Source: a virus
Lineage: Duplodnaviria; Caudoviricetes
Strand: one strand, 5' to 3'
DNA length: 64,000 nucleotides
IMG/VR virus record: IMGVR_UViG_3300020050_016871
Location: 14,455 to 78,454 of that record
The translations under genes were made by a program, and so were the position numbers. This document shows positions 3,324 through 33,058 of this stretch, piece by piece. Under the pieces are notes generated by a model. It was not told where the DNA came from, searched no databases, and worked only from the letters and a program-made list of their open reading frames with translations. Positions within the stretch are counted from its first letter, which is position 1, and each line of letters opens with the position of its first letter.

Positions 3324-4865
3324 TTAATTGTTGTGTGTTTCCACGATTAAACATTCAGTCGAAAGAACAGTAAGAGCAATACTAACAGCATTTCTTAAAT
3401 AATTTTTGATTCCATCTACTGGATCAATAATTCCAGTTTCATATAGATTTTCAAACTGTCTGGTTTTAGCATTATAACCTTGTTCGAAAGAAATCTTTTC
3501 TCTGATTTCATCTATGTTATCATGAAAAGAATTTTGTAATATTTCTTTAAAAGGCTTTCGAAGCATTCTATGAAAAGCTAATTCATATTCATTACAATCG
3601 TTAAAATCTTTTGATAAAAGAACTAAACTTTGTCCACCTCCTATAATCACTTTTCCATTAAGAGCAGCTTTACAAGCGCGATAAGCATCTTGTACTCGAT
3701 GTAATTTTTCTTTGATTTCAATTTCAGAATCACCTCCGACATAGAAAGTAGTAATTCCGTTTTTCATTTTATCAACACGTCTTAACATTTGCAAAGAATA
3801 TGATACTTGTTTTTCTTCTTTGGCGGCTAATTCAATCAAATGAATATAATCATCTAGAATTTCTTTTTGTGTTCCTTCAGGCTCTCCAAAAATAGTATAT
3901 CCTTGCTTTACAATAACATTGAAAGCTTCTCCAAATTGTGTATCAAATTCATCAAAATATTTTATTGGTTCTGCTCCTGTGTAATTATGAATATCATTAA
4001 TTAGATTATCATATTCTTCATTTCTTAATTGATTTTTAATTAAACAAATTTTATTTTCTCCATTATTAAAATCAACAACATTAAGAACATCTTTTGAAAA
4101 ATCTTTGGCAAAAATAATTGTCGGCAACAATGTTCCGTTTTTAGGAAAACGTTCAATCATTTTAATCATTTCTTTTCTGTCTGTAAATTCATTATCATAA
4201 AGAACTACACGACATTTTTTTGCTTCAAAAAAACCACTTATTGGATTATTAGCAAATTTTCTATCCATATACCCCAGGTCCAAAACATAACCTTTGATTA
4301 TATCAACATAACTTTTTCCGTCAACACTTTCAACAATATTAATATAACCATCTTTTCCTGTATTGTCAAAAGCTTTTTGAAATAAATCAGCAATTTCATG
4401 ATCATTGTTTGACGAAGTAAAAGCTACTTTTTTAATTTCAGATAATGGAAGAACAATACTTTTTTCATCTAATAATTCAAAAATATTTTCTAATTCTCTT
4501 TTTACATTTTGTCTAAAAATATGTTCTGAAAAACTTTTCATAGAAGTTTTTAATTCCATTCCTAAAACAATTAATTCTCTACAGAGAACTGAAGCAGTTG
4601 TGGTACCATCACCATTATCAAAATCTGTTTTGGTAGTTACTTTTTTGATTAATTGAATTCCCGTGTTAACAACTGGATCACTATGATCAATACTACTTCC
4701 AACAGTAGCTCCATCTTTTGTAGCAAAAGGATCTGAACCATCAGCGTTATTTATAATAACAAATTTTCCACTTGGTCCCAATGTACTTTTTACAGCATCA
4801 GTGTAAAGATCAATTCCTTCAACTAATTTCTCTTTACTGTTCTTTAAGTAAATTTGTTTTGACAT
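3324..4865 (-). CDS. groEL: Phage chaperonin GroEL (Cpn60)
   Basis: VKSTLGPSGK, TKDGATV, GDGTTTASV, VGGDSEIEIKEKLHRVQDA and GIIDP motifs; lacks the GGM tail. Confidence 0.96.
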   Translation of the reverse strand: MSKQIYLKNSKEKLVEGIDLYTDAVKSTLGPSGKFVIINNADGSDPFATKDGATVGSSIDHSDPVVNTGIQLIKKVTTKTDFDNGDGTTTASVLCRELIVLGMELKTSMKSFSEHIFRQNVKRELENIFELLDEKSIVLPLSEIKKVAFTSSNNDHEIADLFQKAFDNTGKDGYINIVESVDGKSYVDIIKGYVLDLGYMDRKFANNPISGFFEAKKCRVVLYDNEFTDRKEMIKMIERFPKNGTLLPTIIFAKDFSKDVLNVVDFNNGENKICLIKNQLRNEEYDNLINDIHNYTGAEPIKYFDEFDTQFGEAFNVIVKQGYTIFGEPEGTQKEILDDYIHLIELAAKEEKQVSYSLQMLRRVDKMKNGITTFYVGGDSEIEIKEKLHRVQDAYRACKAALNGKVIIGGGQSLVLLSKDFNDCNEYELAFHRMLRKPFKEILQNSFHDNIDEIREKISFEQGYNAKTRQFENLYETGIIDPVDGIKNYLRNAVSIALTVLSTECLIVETHNN

Positions 4866-5516: not shown

Positions 5517-6230
5517 TTATTTAAAGTTAGCTTTTACAGCATGCATAGCAGCTTCTTCATAAGCTGTTTGAGCAAGTGCAATTGATCTATGTTTTTCTCC
5601 AGAGCAATTTTCATCTAATCGCATTGATTCACATAAATCAATTAATGCTGCAGAAGATTTTTTAATTTCATCTACACGAGGATTGTTAGATGGATTAAAA
5701 GAAGCTTGAACTCTATTCATTCCAAGAGTAAGTTCTAATGGAGTAGCTTCTTGCTCTGATTTCTTTTTAAAATAATCAGCAATAATATTTTCTTGGTCAA
5801 CAGTAGGTTCAACTACAAACCATTCTTCTTGATTTTTAAATTTTTCGTAAGGTGTATCTAAAACTTCTTGTGTTTTAGCAAATACCAAAGTCTCTAACGA
5901 TTTCATATCCTTAAACCAGAATCCAAACCAGCCAGGAAGAGCAATACATTTGCCATCATTCAAAAACTTTTCAGCTTCTTCATAAGTCATTTTTTCTGTT
6001 TTAGGTAATTCATTTTCTAAATTAATACCATCAATGTAATCAGATAAAGAGTCTTTTGCAACAAGAAGTTTTGCAATAACAACAGTTAATTGCGGATGCG
6101 CACCTAGTAATTCAATTTTATTAATAGCTTCTTGAATTGAAATTTCTTCAGGTGACAATAAATCCAATCGGTTCCGTCTTGGAATTTTATTTTGATCATT
6201 CATAATTATTTCAGCACTTAACCTTGCCAT
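5517..6230 (-). CDS. Three-domain protein: helical hairpin + DUF2829/Tad2-like + Acb2/Tad1-like domain (putative anti-defence)
   Basis: Middle MTYEEAEKFLNDGKCIALPGW...EEWFVV resembles DUF2829; C-terminal SFNPS...IALAQTAYEEAAMHAVKA resembles the Acb2/Tad1 hairpin family. Confidence 0.55.
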   Translation of the reverse strand: MARLSAEIIMNDQNKIPRRNRLDLLSPEEISIQEAINKIELLGAHPQLTVVIAKLLVAKDSLSDYIDGINLENELPKTEKMTYEEAEKFLNDGKCIALPGWFGFWFKDMKSLETLVFAKTQEVLDTPYEKFKNQEEWFVVEPTVDQENIIADYFKKKSEQEATPLELTLGMNRVQASFNPSNNPRVDEIKKSSAALIDLCESMRLDENCSGEKHRSIALAQTAYEEAAMHAVKANFK

Positions 6231-7024: not shown

Positions 7025-7603
7025 TTACTTGTTTCTATCATATCGCTCCCATGCAAAAAAATCATCCTCGTCCCAGTCATTATGAAAATCAACCGCCGAA
7101 GAATAAGGAAGAATAACATGCTCCAAATCTTTTCCTCTCATATCATCAGAATGAGAAAAATCACCCATAAATTGCTTTTTATAATATTCTTGATCTTCAA
7201 TCATTCTTTGAATATACGGTTTCATTGAAAGATCAAGAACATTAATATCAGACTCTTCATCAATAGAATCTGAAGAAGCAACAATATTAAACTTTTCATT
7301 TTTTTGCCACATATCATAAAAATGACTTCCAATAGTATCATGACCACCCGTGCCAATAATCATTACCTTACCAAAATTCTTATTGTGATTTAATCTTGGC
7401 ATAGCAGCTTCCCATAGTTTTTTATCATAGCCATTCAACATTGCCGTATCAGGATCTCCATAACCAAATAATCTTCTGTTCAATTCAGCAATATCATAAG
7501 GCATTTTCCCTAAAACCCCAGTAACAGATTGTTCTGAGGTTGGTTTTAACTTCTTTTTTTTAGGAATATATCCTAATGACTTTCTTTTATCACGCTTAGA
7601 CAT
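7025..7603 (-). CDS. Hypothetical protein containing a terminase-ATPase-like fragment
   Basis: FGKVMIIGTGG...GSHFYDMWQKNEKFN aligns with TerL FGTPIIFGTGG...GSKGYMDMWENHKAYN in this window. Confidence 0.65.
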   Translation of the reverse strand: MSKRDKRKSLGYIPKKKKLKPTSEQSVTGVLGKMPYDIAELNRRLFGYGDPDTAMLNGYDKKLWEAAMPRLNHNKNFGKVMIIGTGGHDTIGSHFYDMWQKNEKFNIVASSDSIDEESDINVLDLSMKPYIQRMIEDQEYYKKQFMGDFSHSDDMRGKDLEHVILPYSSAVDFHNDWDEDDFFAWERYDRNK

Positions 7604-7628
7604 AATAACTATTTATTATAATTTGTAA

Positions 7629-7729
7629 AATTAATTTGCGCCCGAGGATTACCTACCGCATTTCAATCCAATTCCCTATTAGTTATCCTAGGTTCTAATA
7701 AAGCGCAGCATTTCGGGCGCAAATTAATT
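7629..7729 (-). ncRNA. Putative structured RNA (17-bp closing stem, two internal hairpins, possible pseudoknot)
   Basis: Perfect IR 7629-7645/7713-7729; internal CTTTATTAG/CTAATAGGG and GGATTG/TAATCC stems that use G.U pairs on the minus strand. Confidence 0.6.
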
Positions 7730-7737
7730 CTTTATTG

Positions 7738-7845
7738 TGGAGAGTGAAGGACTCGAACCTCCGACCTTACTTCGGCGACTCGCTTTGAAGTTTCCCCCGC
7801 ACGACACAATCCGAAATACACTCTAGCCAACTGAGCTAACTCCCC
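7738..7845 (-). tRNA. Atypical 108-nt tRNA-like RNA (Ala identity G3.U70, A73) with greatly extended anticodon arm
   Basis: Acceptor GGGGAGT/ACTCTCC, D arm GCTC-AGTTGGCTA-GAGT, variable loop AGGTC, T arm GGAGG-TTCGAGT-CCTTC; ~51-nt arm closed by TATTTCGG/CCGAAGTA in place of the 17-nt anticodon arm; no encoded CCA. Confidence 0.8.
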
Positions 7846-7870
7846 CTGGGTGGCATCCCAAAACTCATTG

Positions 7871-8101
7871 CTAAGAAAACTGGCCATGTAGCTTTTTTTG
7901 ATAACCTGTAAAATCAATCTCTATATGTGCCTGAGCCAACCTTTCCTCATACAACTTTCTTTCATAACTACTCCTAGAATGAATCTGAGGAATATAACTA
8001 AAAAGCAACCATATTGTATCAAGATAAAAATGAATAGCAGAAGAATCAAATCCCTTACACTCCATATTCCATATCAAATCAGGTAAACTTTCTCTAGACA
8101 T
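7871..8101 (-). CDS. Hypothetical protein
   Basis: 76-aa ORF in strand context. Confidence 0.55.
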   Translation of the reverse strand: MSRESLPDLIWNMECKGFDSSAIHFYLDTIWLLFSYIPQIHSRSSYERKLYEERLAQAHIEIDFTGYQKKLHGQFS

Positions 8102-8112
8102 ATCAACTATTA

Positions 8113-8346
8113 TTATTTAGTATAGATTTTTTTAAATATTGGATTCATATTTAAATCATCAATTATCATTGACTTTTCTTTTAAATATTTTTCTAAGTTT
8201 TGAAACCATTCTTCTTTTGGTTTGTCTAAAAAAACATAATCAGATTCAAACAATAGATCTTTTATTTCACTAATCTTAAAACCTTCCGAATGAACTGTTT
8301 CAAAAATTAAATCATAAATATTTAAATAATCCGTTTCTCCTAACAT
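8113..8346 (-). CDS. Hypothetical protein (first gene of the leftward unit)
   Basis: 77-aa ORF directly downstream of the promoter at 8372-8401. Confidence 0.65.
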   Translation of the reverse strand: MLGETDYLNIYDLIFETVHSEGFKISEIKDLLFESDYVFLDKPKEEWFQNLEKYLKEKSMIIDDLNMNPIFKKIYTK

Positions 8347-8371
8347 AACTTATAAATTATTATTAACTTCA

Positions 8372-8401
8372 CAAATATATGCAATTATTGCACACACACA
8401 A
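8372..8401 (-). promoter_or_regulatory. Bacteroidota housekeeping-sigma promoter P1
   Basis: TTG-19 nt-TATATTTG, matching the -33/-7 (TTG...TAnnTTTG) consensus. Confidence 0.8.
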
Positions 8402-8429
8402 CAACCGATGTAAAATTATTTTACAAAAC

Positions 8430-8459
8430 AAAAAAAGCGATACCATCCCTGATACCGCT
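8430..8459 (-). terminator. Intrinsic terminator between P2 and P1
   Basis: AGCGGTATC/GGTATCGCT stem (with G.U) followed by a U7 run. Confidence 0.75.
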
Positions 8460-8513
8460 TCCCTTACTAATTCAAAACTCTAACGCCACACAACTAGCAT
8501 TCAAAGAACATCG

Positions 8514-8543
8514 CAAAGATATGCAAATATTACACATACACAA
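8514..8543 (-). promoter_or_regulatory. Bacteroidota housekeeping-sigma promoter P2
   Basis: TTG-19 nt-TATCTTTG; 26/30 identical to P1. Confidence 0.8.
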
Positions 8544-8698
8544 ATACTAGATAAAAATAATTTTGTCACAAATACTTACTATATCTGTGACAACCCCAAT
8601 AACCTCCAATACCACAAACACTAGCCTACAAACATATATATCGCGAATAAAAAATACATAAGCAATATTTGCATCACATGAAATAAAAAAAATAATAT

Positions 8699-8760
8699 GC
8701 GGGGGGATGGCTTATATACAGAAACCCCCGCCCCTTGTTCCAACTTCGAAGGGGGGGGGG
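8699..8760. other. G/C-tract double-hairpin at the divergence point
   Basis: GCGGGGG(8699-8705), CCCCCGCCCC(8725-8734), G10(8751-8760) in an AT-rich genome. Confidence 0.7.
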
Positions 8761-8818
8761 TGTAAAAACAAATTAAAAAAGTAGTAGAGATTAACTAATC
8801 CCTCTACAGATATAAACT

Positions 8819-11310: not shown

Positions 11311-11370
11311 AGGCAATTGGAAATAGGTTATCACTTCATTGCGTTGCGGGTTCGAATCCCGCATTGCCTA
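11311..11370 (+). ncRNA. 60-nt minimal tRNA-like element (acceptor stem + T arm only)
   Basis: AGGCAAT/ATTGCCT 7-bp stem plus GCGGG-TTCGAAT-CCCGC; only 28 nt where D and anticodon arms should be. Confidence 0.7.
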
Positions 11371-16580: not shown

Positions 16581-16889
16581 ATGCAAAGTAGAATCAAACA
16601 AGAAAAACCAACAAAAGAAGAATGGGATTTAATGATGAATGCTATTAAACAGCAAAAAGAAAAACCGGTTGTTATTCCGGAACAATTTGCTGAATATATG
16701 ATTGATCATTTTACAAATTGTCTTCCTCCGATTGTATGGAGTGATGATTATGTTTTATGTTCAGAACCTTACGATGAAGATTCGGAAGGAAAAGAAAGAT
16801 ATATTGGTTTTTATCAATCCAATCATATCTATTACGGAGTAATTACAACCATTGTTAAATTTAACGCACTTAAAAATGAAAGTCTATAA
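16581..16889 (+). CDS. Hypothetical protein, weak DUF1419-like pattern
   Basis: YMIDHFTNCLPPIVW...LCSEP resembles the LPP motif of DUF1419; family call tentative. Confidence 0.45.
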   Translation: MQSRIKQEKPTKEEWDLMMNAIKQQKEKPVVIPEQFAEYMIDHFTNCLPPIVWSDDYVLCSEPYDEDSEGKERYIGFYQSNHIYYGVITTIVKFNALKNESL

Positions 16890-17325
16890 ATCAACTATAA
16901 AAGAAATTTCTCTTAAAAATTACAAAGGAGAAATTCAAAAAGTAAAAATATCTTCATCTGAAGATATAGCTAAATACTTCAGAGGAATTTTTGACCAAGA
17001 AACTTTAGAAGTGTACGAACAAGTAATGGTAATCTTTTTAAATAATAGTATGAATACTATTGCTTGGTATAAAGCTTCTCAGGGAGGAATGACAGGAACA
17101 ATCATTGATATAAGATTAATTCTTAAAGCAGCATTGGACTGTTACGCTACTAATATTGTAATATGCCAGAATCATCCATCTGGCAAACTAGAAGCTAGTG
17201 AAGCAGATAGAAACATTACTAAAAAATTAAAAGAAGCTTGCAATATTATGCAAATTCAATTGATTGATCATATCATATTAACAACCGAAAGTTATTATTC
17301 TTTCTCTAATGAAGGATTACTATAA
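16876..17325 (+). CDS. radC: RadC-like JAB/MPN domain protein (first Zn-ligand His replaced by Gln); start revised to 16876
   Basis: EQVMVIFLN, GGMTGTIIDIRLILKAAL, QNHPSG...SEADRNIT, LIDHIIL. Confidence 0.88.
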   Translation: MKVYKSTIKEISLKNYKGEIQKVKISSSEDIAKYFRGIFDQETLEVYEQVMVIFLNNSMNTIAWYKASQGGMTGTIIDIRLILKAALDCYATNIVICQNHPSGKLEASEADRNITKKLKEACNIMQIQLIDHIILTTESYYSFSNEGLL

Positions 17326-28857: not shown

Positions 28858-29991
28858 ATGAATTTTTTCGAAACATTATCAGCAACAGGAATTAAAGATG
28901 TAGTATTTCAAGTAAAAGAAGATAGTACAGGAAACATCACTGTTTTTATTACTCCAAAATCAGTATCAGAAGATCCTGCTTTGTCAAAATTAAAACCAAT
29001 TTTTATTAGTGGAACACCACAAGATATTGATGGACAATTTTTTCATTTGATTACTGCTCCTCTTCAAAACATTCAAAAAGTATTTACAAACATAGAAGCT
29101 TTTGAAGCCCAGGCTAAAGAAGTTGCTAAAGCTACTGCAGATAAAAAATCAGCTAAAAAAGCAACAACAACAGCTGCTGCATCGGAAGAAGATGGAGAAG
29201 AAAAAACACCAGCTGCTAAGCCTGAAAAAACAGTTAAAGTCAACAATGAAAAAGTTCTAAAAGAATTTATGACTTCTATTAAAGATGAACCGATTATTGG
29301 TCATAAAGAAAAAATAGAAGAATTGTATGCTTTATTATCTGAAGCTGAGTTAGGAAAACCATTTGCTAAAAAAGTGAGAATCGATTTAGATATTGCTATT
29401 CGTAAAGAAGCAAACTTACAAGCTGCTAGAGAGAAACATGGTTTTACTCCTAAAGAAGAAACTGCCACAGAATCTAAAGATATGAAGATAGTAGATATCA
29501 GCAATCTTACAGTACAAAATGGAGTAATAAAAGAAGTAGTAAACCCAAACGAGAACGCACCTCAAGCTGCTGGTCCAGAAGAGGTAGTTGCTACAAATGA
29601 AAGTGAAAACACAGAAAGTATTATTGATGCTTATGAACAATCTGCTGTAGAAAAAGAAGTTGCTTTTGAACAAGTATCTGCTCCTATAGAAGAAGTAATT
29701 ATTCCTACTCCTACACCACCAGCGCCTGTTGCCGCACCAATAGTTCCGAAAGTACCTGCTGAACCTGAGTTTGAAGAAATTCAACAATTAGTAATGTTAG
29801 TTACTGATGGAACTTATGAAGAATACATTAAAGCTACATGGACTGACGAATTGTTAATTGAGCACAAAAAAGCAGAATACAGAACTGTTAAAGTTCCTGT
29901 TATTAAAACACCGGTAGCCGAAGCACCTGCTCAAAAGTTATCTTATACTTTTCCAACGCAATTTGATGCTGAAGAAGAAGAAAACAATTAA
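28858..29991 (+). CDS. PRTRC system protein E (ParB-related ThiF-related cassette) with long C-terminal extension
   Basis: MNFFETL...GNITVFITP...LKPIFISGTPQDIDGQFFHLITAP N-terminus; first gene of the cassette. Confidence 0.8.
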   Translation: MNFFETLSATGIKDVVFQVKEDSTGNITVFITPKSVSEDPALSKLKPIFISGTPQDIDGQFFHLITAPLQNIQKVFTNIEAFEAQAKEVAKATADKKSAKKATTTAAASEEDGEEKTPAAKPEKTVKVNNEKVLKEFMTSIKDEPIIGHKEKIEELYALLSEAELGKPFAKKVRIDLDIAIRKEANLQAAREKHGFTPKEETATESKDMKIVDISNLTVQNGVIKEVVNPNENAPQAAGPEEVVATNESENTESIIDAYEQSAVEKEVAFEQVSAPIEEVIIPTPTPPAPVAAPIVPKVPAEPEFEEIQQLVMLVTDGTYEEYIKATWTDELLIEHKKAEYRTVKVPVIKTPVAEAPAQKLSYTFPTQFDAEEEENN

Positions 29992-30012
29992 TTAATTTTT
30001 AGATAAAATATC

Positions 30013-30231
30013 ATGGCAATAGTAAAAGAATTAAAAAGAAAGTTCACTATCAAAATAGGAAATGAAGTTATTGAACTTGAAGATCCGAATTCAAACTTTG
30101 AAGCAAAAGATGTAATGGAAATGTATGCCAATCAATATCCTCAATTAGTAAATGCTACTATTGAATCAAAAGGAATTGTTGACGAATGTATTCTGTACAA
30201 TTTTGCGACAGTAGCCGGAACAAAAGGATAA
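30013..30231 (+). CDS. PRTRC system protein C, ubiquitin-like modifier
   Basis: LKRKF...LEDPN...VMEMYANQYPQLVNATIE...YNFATVAGTKG; ends in Gly. Confidence 0.9.
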   Translation: MAIVKELKRKFTIKIGNEVIELEDPNSNFEAKDVMEMYANQYPQLVNATIESKGIVDECILYNFATVAGTKG

Positions 30232-30234
30232 GCT

Positions 30235-30408
30235 ATGAATGCAATTGAATTTTTAAAAATTTTAAAGGAGCGGCCACAGGCTGCTCCTTTTGATAAAAAA
30301 CTTAGTGGTTTATGTCAAAATATTCGATCCAATCAAAAAACAAATTACAAAAACGGAACCGTACAAACAAAAATGGTTCTAAGCAGACAAAAAATATTTT
30401 TCAGCTAA
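30235..30408 (+). CDS. 57-aa ORF inside the PRTRC cassette, overlapping the next gene
   Basis: Manual translation MNAIEFLKILKERPQ...; good start context right after the Ubl stop. Confidence 0.4.
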   Translation: MNAIEFLKILKERPQAAPFDKKLSGLCQNIRSNQKTNYKNGTVQTKMVLSRQKIFFS

Positions 30409-31358
30409 TTGATCAAATTCCTAAAATAAAATATGGAATTAATATTGGTGAACATGATCCTATAATCTTTGCAGAAAATCTTATTACTTTTTTACAATCA
30501 AAACATCCTGAAGAATTAAATAAATTAGTTTTTAAGGAAACTGATAGTTTGAACAAATTGTTAGGTCTATTAGCTAAAACTATTATAGATCTTAAATACA
30601 TAATTGTATATTCTGAAGAAGATAAAACAAATAACGATTTACGAATTTTATATGAGATACCTCATAAAGAATTTATGTGGTATTATTTTGATACAAAAAC
30701 AATTGATGATATAGAAGCTGAAGAATTAAAAATTGGCTTTGCTCATTTTCTATACCATTTTGGAAAATCATGTGAACATAATGCTTTAGATAGTGATTAT
30801 GAAAATACTGTTGATAATCCTTATGAAATGCAATTTGAAATGCTTAGTGATGAAGAAATAGCTTTTGATGAAAATGATGAATTTGATGAAGAGCATTATG
30901 AAAAAATAAGTGATAAAGCTAATGAAGAACTTCAGACATTAAGAGTATTAAAAGAAAAATTTAATTTCTATAATCAAAAACCATTAGAATTGTTTTTAGA
31001 TTACGAACCTAAAAATGATTTAGAAAAAGGATTTAAAGAATGTTTAATAGAAGGATTAGATATTCCTTTTCGTGACATTATGGTTCAATTCATGCCAGAT
31101 GAAGATATTTATAACGATGGAGGTATTGGTTTTGATATGAATTTTGTTTTGTATTTAGATCCAGAAAATGAATTTGAAAAAGAACATTTTACATATATGA
31201 ATGAAAATGCTAACAATGGAATTTCAAATCCTTGTGGCTGGTATTCTGTATCTGAAGGTATTCTAGAACAAATGACTTCAGATGAAGATGCCAAGAATCT
31301 TTTTTATATTCAATGTTATTTGGAAAATATTTATACTCAATTTTTAAATAAAATGTAA
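30312..31358 (+). CDS. PRTRC-cassette acidic protein (protein F position)
   Basis: 348-aa ORF between Ubl and E2, as in Bacteroidota PRTRC cassettes; call is mainly positional. Confidence 0.55.
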   Translation: MSKYSIQSKNKLQKRNRTNKNGSKQTKNIFQLIDQIPKIKYGINIGEHDPIIFAENLITFLQSKHPEELNKLVFKETDSLNKLLGLLAKTIIDLKYIIVYSEEDKTNNDLRILYEIPHKEFMWYYFDTKTIDDIEAEELKIGFAHFLYHFGKSCEHNALDSDYENTVDNPYEMQFEMLSDEEIAFDENDEFDEEHYEKISDKANEELQTLRVLKEKFNFYNQKPLELFLDYEPKNDLEKGFKECLIEGLDIPFRDIMVQFMPDEDIYNDGGIGFDMNFVLYLDPENEFEKEHFTYMNENANNGISNPCGWYSVSEGILEQMTSDEDAKNLFYIQCYLENIYTQFLNKM

Positions 31359-32029
31359 TGATAACACACATTAAAAATGTTGACGAAAACAAATTAGAAT
31401 TTGTTATATGTGGATATTCTAGCGAAATGATTTATCATGAATTCAATTCAGATGAAAACAAATTAGATGCCGGCAAGTCATTGACTTTTGAAACTGCAAA
31501 ATCTATTTTTAATTTTATTAATCAAATAGATGATATTCAAAATTATTCTTTTCAAGACATTATTCCAAAAAATGTTTTAAAGTTTAAAACAGATGAAAAA
31601 TATATTATCTGGGAAACTCCTGAAGGTATTCAAGACATAATTTACAAAGAAAATTTACCTATACAATCAGGAAAGTATTTTGTTCCAAAAATGGTTTGGA
31701 AATTGGTAAATAACAGATTGTCTATTTGGGCAATTAAAAAAAGTGTTTCAAGTAAAAAAGATAAATTATTTCAAGCTCCATTTTTTAACGTAAATGGTAC
31801 CGGAGGTGTTTGTATGGGAAATGCAAAATTTGTTGATAACGGCTATGATTATTTAAAAATAATGAAAAAGGTTGAAGCTGCTTTCTGGAATTCTGTTTTC
31901 ACACATACTATTCAAAACGAACTGCTTAATTTTAATTTTGTAGAATGGTGTAATGATCCAAGATTACATTTAGAAGATTGCAGTCATTTATTGATTGAAA
32001 AGTCAACAATAATTAAAGATATATTATAA
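31358..32029 (+). CDS. PRTRC system protein B, prokaryotic E2 family D
   Basis: IIWETP...YFVPKMVW...LSIWAIK...LFQAPFFNVNGTGGVCMGN...FWNSVFTH; candidate catalytic Cys in VCMG. Confidence 0.88.
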   Translation: MITHIKNVDENKLEFVICGYSSEMIYHEFNSDENKLDAGKSLTFETAKSIFNFINQIDDIQNYSFQDIIPKNVLKFKTDEKYIIWETPEGIQDIIYKENLPIQSGKYFVPKMVWKLVNNRLSIWAIKKSVSSKKDKLFQAPFFNVNGTGGVCMGNAKFVDNGYDYLKIMKKVEAAFWNSVFTHTIQNELLNFNFVEWCNDPRLHLEDCSHLLIEKSTIIKDIL

Positions 32030-32247
32030 TGGCAGAATTTGAAATAGCAGCACCTGGAACAATCTGTTTAATTCAACAAACAGAAGATGGAAGAATTATG
32101 CAATTAGCAATGACAAAAGAACAAAACAATCTTTTACAATTATTGATTGCATCAATGAGCACAGCAAGTCCTTTAATTAAAATGGATCCAGAGTATGATT
32201 TGGTTTTAAAAAATTCATTGTGTAAAAAATGTAAAAATGAAAAATAA
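32029..32247 (+). CDS. Small hypothetical protein within the cassette
   Basis: 72-aa ORF coupled to E2 and E1 genes. Confidence 0.6.
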   Translation: MAEFEIAAPGTICLIQQTEDGRIMQLAMTKEQNNLLQLLIASMSTASPLIKMDPEYDLVLKNSLCKKCKNEK

Positions 32248-33058
32248 AAAAGAAACAATTCATTATGCTCCTGCATATTTTATTGAACCAACGCATCCAA
32301 TAACAATTGCTGTAATTGGCTGTGGTGGTACGGGTTCATTAGTACTTCCTCGATTGGCACGATTGGATTATGTTTTAAAAGAATTAGGATTGCCAGGTTT
32401 GTACGTGCATGCGTATGACGGCGATACTGTAGAGCAAAACAATGTAGGCAGACAGAACTTTAATAAAAATGATATTGGTGAATTCAAAGCGGCCAATTTA
32501 ATCCAAAAAATAAATATGGCTTATGGATTAGATTGGAATGCTACAAATGAATACGTAAGCAATATTCCGAGTGCAAACATTTTAATTACTTGTGTTGACA
32601 AAATTGATTTAAGAACTTTATTTCATGGCGTTTTTAATTCAGATTATAAAAACAAGAACAATGATTATCTTAAAAATTATTATTGGTTAGATTGTGGTAA
32701 CGGTAGAAATTTTGGTCAGGTTGTATTAACTACAATTGGTAAAATAGAACAACCTAAAAAATCAGCATACAATTGTCAATCAATACTTCCATCAGTAATT
32801 GATATCTATGGAGAATTGAACCAATACGATACACAAGAAGCACAAGGTATTGTTGGTTGTTCAATGGCTGAAAGTTTAGCTAAACAAGATGTATTCATTA
32901 ATGATGAAATAGCTGTTCAAGCAGTTAAAATTGTACAGCAGCTGGTTCGTCATTATCGAATTCAATATCATGGCGCTGTAGTCAATCAGGGAACAAGTAA
33001 AGTAATTGGAATTCCGATTCCACAAAACAAAAAATCATGTCAAAATACCAAGAAATAA
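32237..33058 (+). CDS. PRTRC system ThiF-family E1 enzyme
   Basis: VIGCGGTGS, DGDTVEQNNVGRQ, ITCVD, YWLDCGNG..FGQV, GCSMAESLAKQDVFIN. Confidence 0.93.
   Translation: MKNKKETIHYAPAYFIEPTHPITIAVIGCGGTGSLVLPRLARLDYVLKELGLPGLYVHAYDGDTVEQNNVGRQNFNKNDIGEFKAANLIQKINMAYGLDWNATNEYVSNIPSANILITCVDKIDLRTLFHGVFNSDYKNKNNDYLKNYYWLDCGNGRNFGQVVLTTIGKIEQPKKSAYNCQSILPSVIDIYGELNQYDTQEAQGIVGCSMAESLAKQDVFINDEIAVQAVKIVQQLVRHYRIQYHGAVVNQGTSKVIGIPIPQNKKSCQNTKK

Follow-up and report, generated by a model that had tools for sequence, protein, structure and literature searches.

A phage tRNA-Ala-type gene with a 51-nt arm in place of the anticodon stem-loop

Alanyl-tRNA synthetase (AlaRS) reads the acceptor stem of its substrate (G3:U70 and A73), and a minihelix is enough for charging. 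The acceptor/T half of the molecule is what is recognised by RNase P, the 3' tRNA-end nuclease, the CCA-adding enzyme and EF-Tu, and decoding depends on a fixed distance between the anticodon and the CCA end. The tags encoded by tmRNA typically have hydrophobic ends. Phage tRNAs are known to rescue infection from tRNA-cleaving defences; a chargeable tRNA half that does not decode would be a different phage tool, namely a decoy, a carrier or a scaffold. In mycobacteriophage DS6A, tmRNA is reduced to its tRNA-like domain ("TLD only"), a kind of molecule by which tmRNA is inhibited (Hudson et al. 2014, PMC4131195). The tRNA genes of Lak megaphages contain short introns that have been called "enigmatic" (Devoto et al. 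2019, PMC6784885). Our literature search returned no description of anticodon-less alanine-type phage tRNA look-alikes, which does not in itself prove that they are unpublished; they recur among phages and, as a class, are apparently undescribed.

The locus considered here lies in a window of 64,000 nt, the whole stretch of DNA that was analysed, which corresponds to bases 14455–78454 of a virus record; the record is 78,454 bp long, has direct terminal repeats and carries a completeness rating of 100%. Its phage genes encode a DnaG-type primase, a Dda-like helicase, GroEL (3324–4865, in the early region), a 5'-3' exonuclease, a portal protein, a head protein, an endolysin-domain protein and an ORF of 3962 aa. 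A PRTRC-like ubiquitin-type cassette is also present at 28858–33058 (+) and 16852–17325 (+), with PRTRC_E, a prokaryotic E2 of family D and a ThiF-family E1, and a RadC/JAB protein is encoded elsewhere. Among cultured phages, those of Cellulophaga baltica have the proteins most similar to the 3'-5' exonuclease that adjoins the tRNA-like gene (46–55% identity). The tRNA-like body, in turn, equals ordinary Bacteroidota-type tRNA-Ala genes in viral contigs at 24 of 26 nucleotides of its 5' part, and has the same type of trailer. From these two similarities we infer a Bacteroidota, Flavobacteriia-like host. A pattern scan for relatives of a neighbouring 192-aa protein found none.

An alanine-type body with an extended arm

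The tRNA-like gene is 108 nt long and occupies positions 7738–7845 of the minus strand. Rfam model RF00005 matches it from end to end (model positions 1–71) with 43 bits against a cut-off of 29 and an E-value of 8.6e-6 when the entire window is searched; 47 nt of the anticodon region fall outside the model and are treated as an insert. By direct reading, the acceptor stem pairs GGGGAGU (RNA 1–7; 7839–7845), which holds the G3 of G3:U70, with ACUCUCC, followed by the discriminator A73 (RNA 101–108; 7738–7745). The D arm, GCUC-AGUUGGCUA-GAGU, has both G18 and G19 (RNA 10–26; 7820–7836), and the variable loop AGGUC leads into the T arm GGAGG-UUCGAGU-CCUUC (RNA 79–100; 7746–7767); the Rfam alignment covers these elements as well. 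With U8, A9 and G26 also in place, the RNA has the 7-bp acceptor stem, D arm, T arm and conserved tertiary bases of a canonical tRNA-Ala cloverleaf, and, at the level of sequence, the AlaRS identity set G3:U70, A73 and G2:C71. No CCA is encoded; in its place stands a CAA trailer, of the type found with ordinary Bacteroidota-type tRNA-Ala genes. The first-pass annotation, made from the sequence alone, had described canonical acceptor, D, variable and T elements together with G3:U70 and A73; direct reading confirms all of these and places them on the minus strand, which had been left unstated.

Where a canonical tRNA-Ala has a 5-bp anticodon stem and a 7-nt loop with U33, an NGC anticodon and purine 37, this gene has an 8-bp helix and a further 35 nt. 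The proximal helix is formed by UAUUUCGG (RNA 28–35; 7811–7818) and CCGAAGUA (RNA 71–78; 7768–7775), as seen in both the fold and the comparison with an orthologue, and its first 5 bp fill the normal position of the anticodon stem. The distal domain (RNA 36–70; 7776–7810), delimited by the fold and by excision tests, consists of short helices and internal loops with a GGGG-GAAA-CUUC tip, and it has no canonical anticodon loop. The minimum-energy fold of the whole RNA returns the cloverleaf body together with this tip, at a modest z-score of -2.0, and leaves only very short single-stranded stretches in the arm. Both the alanine-identity body with an arm of about 51 nt replacing the anticodon stem-loop and the division of that arm into an 8-bp stem and 35 nt with a GAAA-capped hairpin, as originally proposed, agree with the Rfam match, the sequence and the fold. 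The accompanying statement that there is no U33 anticodon loop holds only in canonical numbering, because a U is the second of the seven nucleotides (AUUGUGU) that follow the 8-bp helix.

Standard searches pass over this gene. ARAGORN with default settings reported neither a tRNA nor a tmRNA, and such genes are therefore likely to be under-annotated. When the element was compared by BLAST with 50,697 phage records there was no match, and no exact 18-mer of it was found in viral contigs.

Relatives, early context and proposed role

The nearest contig (L011, 80.5 kb) encodes an exonuclease 53% identical to that of the window and a small ORF with 56% identity. In this contig a promoter box is followed by tandem tRNA-like genes at 4122–4229 and 4282–4415 and then by the small ORF; the second of the tandem genes, which was located through synteny without recourse to an acceptor pattern, has G3:U70 and A73 too. 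The first is the sole orthologue in a related phage that was used for comparison. Like the window gene it is 108 nt long, and the flanking intergenic DNA of the two is unalignable. The proximal helix is 8 bp in both (UAUUUCGG/CCGAAGUA in the window, GUUGAAAG/CUUUCAAU in the orthologue), with seven of the eight pairs different and all still paired, and in the body the pairs 6:67, 7:66, 49:65 and 51:63 are altered on both strands.

Pattern scans of viral and metagenome contigs added twelve distinct genes in which the same body carries an arm of 39–64 nt. Across the 15 alanine-type long-arm genes every stem pair that was not fixed by the search pattern covaries, with four pair types at 7:66 and five at 50:64, and none is mispaired; U8, A14, G18, G19 and the T-loop UUCGA are invariant. 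The pair G3:U70 was written into two of the search patterns, so that its invariance among the hits forced by those patterns is circular, and it is informative only for the window gene, the two L011 copies, which synteny brought to light, and seven hits of one earlier scan. Homologue covariation, suggested at the outset as a check, thus speaks for the proposed structure, both in the compensatory changes relative to the orthologue and in the larger set. Taken together, these comparisons indicate that the tRNA-like gene is real and evolutionarily maintained.

A scan of species genomes for the exact body with a normal arm gave no hits, and a second scan for a normal-armed version of this body retrieved nothing but ordinary tRNA-Ala genes, whose T and acceptor sequences differ. 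The sole long-arm match in 185,579 species genomes (L198, 4419–4517 (-)) was rejected as an artefact of a Bacteroidetes MAG, in which assembly had joined two tRNA genes through NN. The phenomenon may not depend on alanine identity, since phage tRNA genes with long inserts are known with other acceptor stems as well.

The tRNA-like gene closes an early unit on the minus strand, in which promoter-like boxes are followed by two small ORFs and then by the gene itself. The boxes (at about 8371–8544) are of the TTTG...TAnnTTTG type and are putatively assigned from this motif, which is not enriched window-wide; one of them is nearly identical in L011, directly 5' of the tRNA-like genes. The two ORFs, of 76 and 77 aa, lie upstream in the same direction at 7871–8346 (7871–8101 and 8113–8346), and the 76-aa ORF is kept in three related phage contigs. 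Six nucleotides past the tRNA-like gene begins a 105-nt multi-branched RNA (7627–7731, minus strand) with a 19-bp closing stem and then a U run, for which Rfam gives weak noise only; judging from its predicted fold, it is probably the terminator of the early unit. At a distance of 1.5 kb from the tRNA-like gene, a 237-aa protein (5517–6230, minus strand) has a C-terminal Acb2/Tad1 hairpin domain (Pfam PF24729, E of 2.9e-9), and may be a sponge that sequesters the cyclic-nucleotide signals of host immunity.

Between the upstream gene and the early promoters, four related phages keep a GC-clamped hairpin with the core CUUCGAAGUU and a T run behind it, at about 8721–8762 (-) in the window, 3826–3860 in L011, 2493–2530 in L259 and 2303–2340 in L261. 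It, too, is probably a terminator.

The sister phages L259 and L261 retain the small ORF, the promoter boxes and this hairpin, and neither has a tRNA-like gene at E<=0.01. Its being missing from phages that keep the operon indicates that the tRNA-like gene is an accessory, movable part of the early region.

We propose that the gene encodes a functional, non-decoding derivative of Bacteroidota-type tRNA-Ala, an accessory of the early operon of a lytic-type phage that most likely serves as a decoy or sponge, and we hold this reading with about even confidence. Host-type promoters would drive transcription of the RNA and of the two small early ORFs together; RNase P and, at the 3' tRNA end, RNase Z or exonucleases would then cut the RNA free, and CCA would be added to it. 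Charging with alanine by AlaRS is predicted because the acceptor identity set is complete (G1:C72, G2:C71, G3:U70, G4:C69 and A73) and the enzyme reads it without the anticodon. Codon reading, on the other hand, is predicted to be impossible, since a decoding tRNA has a fixed anticodon-to-CCA geometry that the arm, with its 8-bp helix and 35-nt domain, exceeds by far. The RNA is thus probably chargeable but unable to decode. Its most likely target would be a host factor that binds the tRNA body or the 3' end, for example a tRNA-directed immune toxin, with the variable arm either excluding the RNA from translation or acting as a handle. The decoy idea draws on the location of the gene in an accessory early region near the Acb2/Tad1-domain protein, and on an arm that varies like an arms-race surface.

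Extended beyond this phage, the proposal would be that Bacteroidota phages keep tRNA bodies which can be charged with alanine but which an oversized arm shuts out of decoding, for use as an early sponge of host immune enzymes directed at the acceptor end or the body of tRNAs, or for non-ribosomal delivery of alanine, the hypervariable arm being under arms-race selection. We offer this generalization tentatively and regard it as rather doubtful.

Alternative readings of the long arm

The main alternative to a decoy or sponge is that the arm is the active part of the molecule, as an aptamer, a protein-binding site or a regulatory hairpin, with the tRNA body serving as a scaffold for processing and stability and its alanine identity simply inherited. 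The variation of the arm bears on this directly. The distal domain of the orthologue is a hairpin whose 7-nt loop, CUUGCAU, is a perfect Ala(UGC) anticodon loop placed about 14 bp too far from the elbow; it is unrelated in sequence to the distal domain of the window gene and shares no motif with it. Other phages have at least two further arm designs on the same body, which makes at least three unrelated arm architectures on one nearly invariant body overall. Together, the unrelated distal domains and the further designs indicate a conserved body and an arm that can vary freely. Conservation of the arm, which the first-pass annotation had made a point of decision, is found in part: the length of the 8-bp helix is kept with compensatory changes, but the distal sequence differs in the only orthologue, and because of this difference the function of the arm cannot be read from conservation.

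Such exchange of arms on a constant body is what a scaffold might show; moreover, one gene group has conserved arm motifs with covarying helices, and long inserts are found on other tRNA bodies also. Against an active arm in the window gene stand the lack of a common motif with the orthologue, the very short single-stranded stretches, and the results of searches for a target. An antisense role was rejected, since in the rest of the 78-kb genome, with both strands considered, the arm finds nothing longer than 10-mers, in keeping with chance expectation; the energy of a duplex between the arm and the downstream RNA equals that of shuffled controls, with no significant complementarity. We consider the scaffold explanation unlikely.

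Seven loci of other phages (L075, L176, L184, L190, L194, L195 and L197) make up an alanine-type subgroup with the common arm motif CAAAGAAAANCUGUUAG...GUAG...GGAANCAGUAAUAAGGGUC, in which the core of the hairpin loop is always a 6-nt palindrome (UGUACA, UGCGCA or CGCGCG) that could permit loop-loop dimerisation. These genes lie 1.4–2.4 kb 5' of the large terminase gene or beside the portal gene, and are often the first in a tRNA cluster. More than 100 other phage tRNA genes with inserts of 45–75 nt between the D and T arms were collected as loci L069–L186; they include one family of about 50 near-identical copies with the acceptor ACCCAAG and discriminator G, and a family in which a 43-nt element after position 28 is followed by an intact anticodon arm (Asn, Ile, Thr and Lys types).

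The gene could instead be an intron-bearing tRNA, as the first-pass annotation also suggested, in which some unknown pathway of bacterium or phage, like that proposed for Lak, cuts out the insert and rejoins the ends to leave a decoding tRNA. Short inserts in phage tRNA genes have indeed been published (PMC6784885). In our excision test, every single segment between the D and T arms was removed, and a 5-bp stem, U33 and purine 37 were needed in the product. One-piece excision restores a perfect anticodon arm in 18 of the 57 long-insert phage tRNA genes with other acceptors, compared with 20 of 1380 shuffled controls, from which it follows that real excisable inserts occur in phage tRNA genes. 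The window gene is not one of these: neither it nor 11 of the 12 alanine-type long-arm genes gives a canonical product. If a pyrimidine is tolerated at position 37, a cut of 34 nt produces an alanine anticodon, CGC, in the loop CUCGCCG, but this product is atypical in having C37, and the L011 orthologue offers no equivalent. ARAGORN, silent by default on this gene, does report a tRNA-Thr(UGU) with a 28-nt intron once introns are allowed; that product requires an 8-bp anticodon stem or a distorted core, its threonine anticodon contradicts the alanine acceptor, and it, too, is not kept in the orthologue.

The bulge-helix-bulge of archaeal and eukaryal intron-bearing tRNAs was sought in the fold, which has a 2-nt bulge and 2x2 and 2x3 internal loops and no 3-4-3 arrangement; the host is bacterial. 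Group I introns of bacterial or phage tRNA genes are some 200 nt or more in length, have a P1–P9 catalytic core and lie in the anticodon loop; the insert, at 34–35 nt, is far too short, and Rfam gives no group I hit at E<=1 in 7600–8000. No RNA ligase, RtcB or Pnkp/kinase-phosphatase was detected with Pfam and PHROGs in the approximately 45 ORFs scanned, a set without the short ORFs, the proteins of 3962 and 1575 aa and several further large ones from the late region. No insert-free allele or paralogue was found, and what the sister phages miss is the whole gene and not the insert. An intron is accordingly disfavoured, and we judge it distinctly unlikely.

A tRNA-Ala gene broken by an insertion and now decaying as a pseudogene, a passive passenger of the phage, would fit with the absence from two sister phages, with the non-conserved distal domain and with the modest fold z-score. 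Decay is, however, at odds with four intact stems, with the invariance of the tertiary-contact bases and T-loop, with compensatory changes relative to an orthologue whose flanks cannot be aligned, and with the independent recurrence of the design in many phage contigs, and we regard it as improbable.

A mimic or inhibitor of trans-translation, that is, a minimal tmRNA-like RNA that titrates SmpB or enters stalled ribosomes, is highly improbable, for although G3:U70/A73 and the T arm are common to tmRNA and the TLD-only tmRNA of DS6A, of a kind that inhibits tmRNA, is a precedent (PMC4131195), the D stem is complete, the arm stands in the place of SmpB, ARAGORN and Rfam make no tmRNA call, and there is no tag frame. 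The sole open frame in the arm, considered as that of a mini-tmRNA, runs for 12 codons to ...SESPK and then UAA, is not tag-like and has no counterpart in the L011 copy. With these defining features failing, the ribosome-rescue role envisaged in the first-pass annotation is not supported.

A decoy or sponge remains our preferred reading. The window gene is a clean example for its study, coming from a complete genome, with a body near-identical to ordinary Bacteroidota-type tRNA-Ala in viral contigs, an orthologue with compensatory changes and an arm for which a simple intron can be computationally excluded. If it is indeed alanylated, the RNA would be a natural viral case of aminoacylation uncoupled from decoding.

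Comparison with described RNAs

In YrlA the ends of the RNA lie in the Ro-binding stem, and the acceptor is closed. YrlA and the other bacterial and phage Y RNAs (Rfam RF02553) resemble the window RNA in being non-decoding and mimic the tRNA elbow, whereas the window RNA has ordinary tRNA topology with free acceptor ends, and tRNA is the sole Rfam family that it matches.

A second tRNA-like gene in the window, of 60 nt (11311–11370 (+); Rfam tRNA, 30 bits), departs from the ordinary tRNA in another way, having an acceptor stem and a perfect T arm with about 27 nt replacing the D and anticodon arms. A related contig has a copy of 88% identity in which the acceptor pairs 1:72 and 7:66 show compensatory changes, and in L011 the gene is reduced to an acceptor/T minihelix only. 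A conserved tail, CUAACCAAGUCCUAA, follows on its 3' side.

The tRNA genes of Lak megaphages belong to Bacteroidota phages, as the 108-nt gene probably does, and like it have short, non-group-I inserts at the anticodon region. The Lak inserts, however, were defined by alignment to insert-free copies and leave a normal tRNA, while the window gene has neither an excision that restores one nor an insert-free copy (PMC6784885). In comparison with the bacterial elongator tRNA-Ala (RF00005, Bacteroidota type), the acceptor with G3:U70 and A73, the D arm, the variable loop, the T arm and the non-CCA trailer are nearly the same, and the difference lies in the 51-nt arm that replaces the 5-bp stem and 7-nt NGC loop, giving a length of 108 nt versus 73–76.

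The tRNA-like domain of tmRNA, including that of DS6A, is like the window RNA in joining an alanine acceptor and T arm to a long helix with no anticodon. The two differ in that tmRNA has no D stem, accommodates SmpB in that space, and contains pseudoknots and a tag ORF with resume and stop codons, whereas the window RNA has a full D arm and no ORF. The TLD-only gene of DS6A nevertheless provides a phage-borne precedent for a non-decoding RNA of alanine type (PMC4131195).
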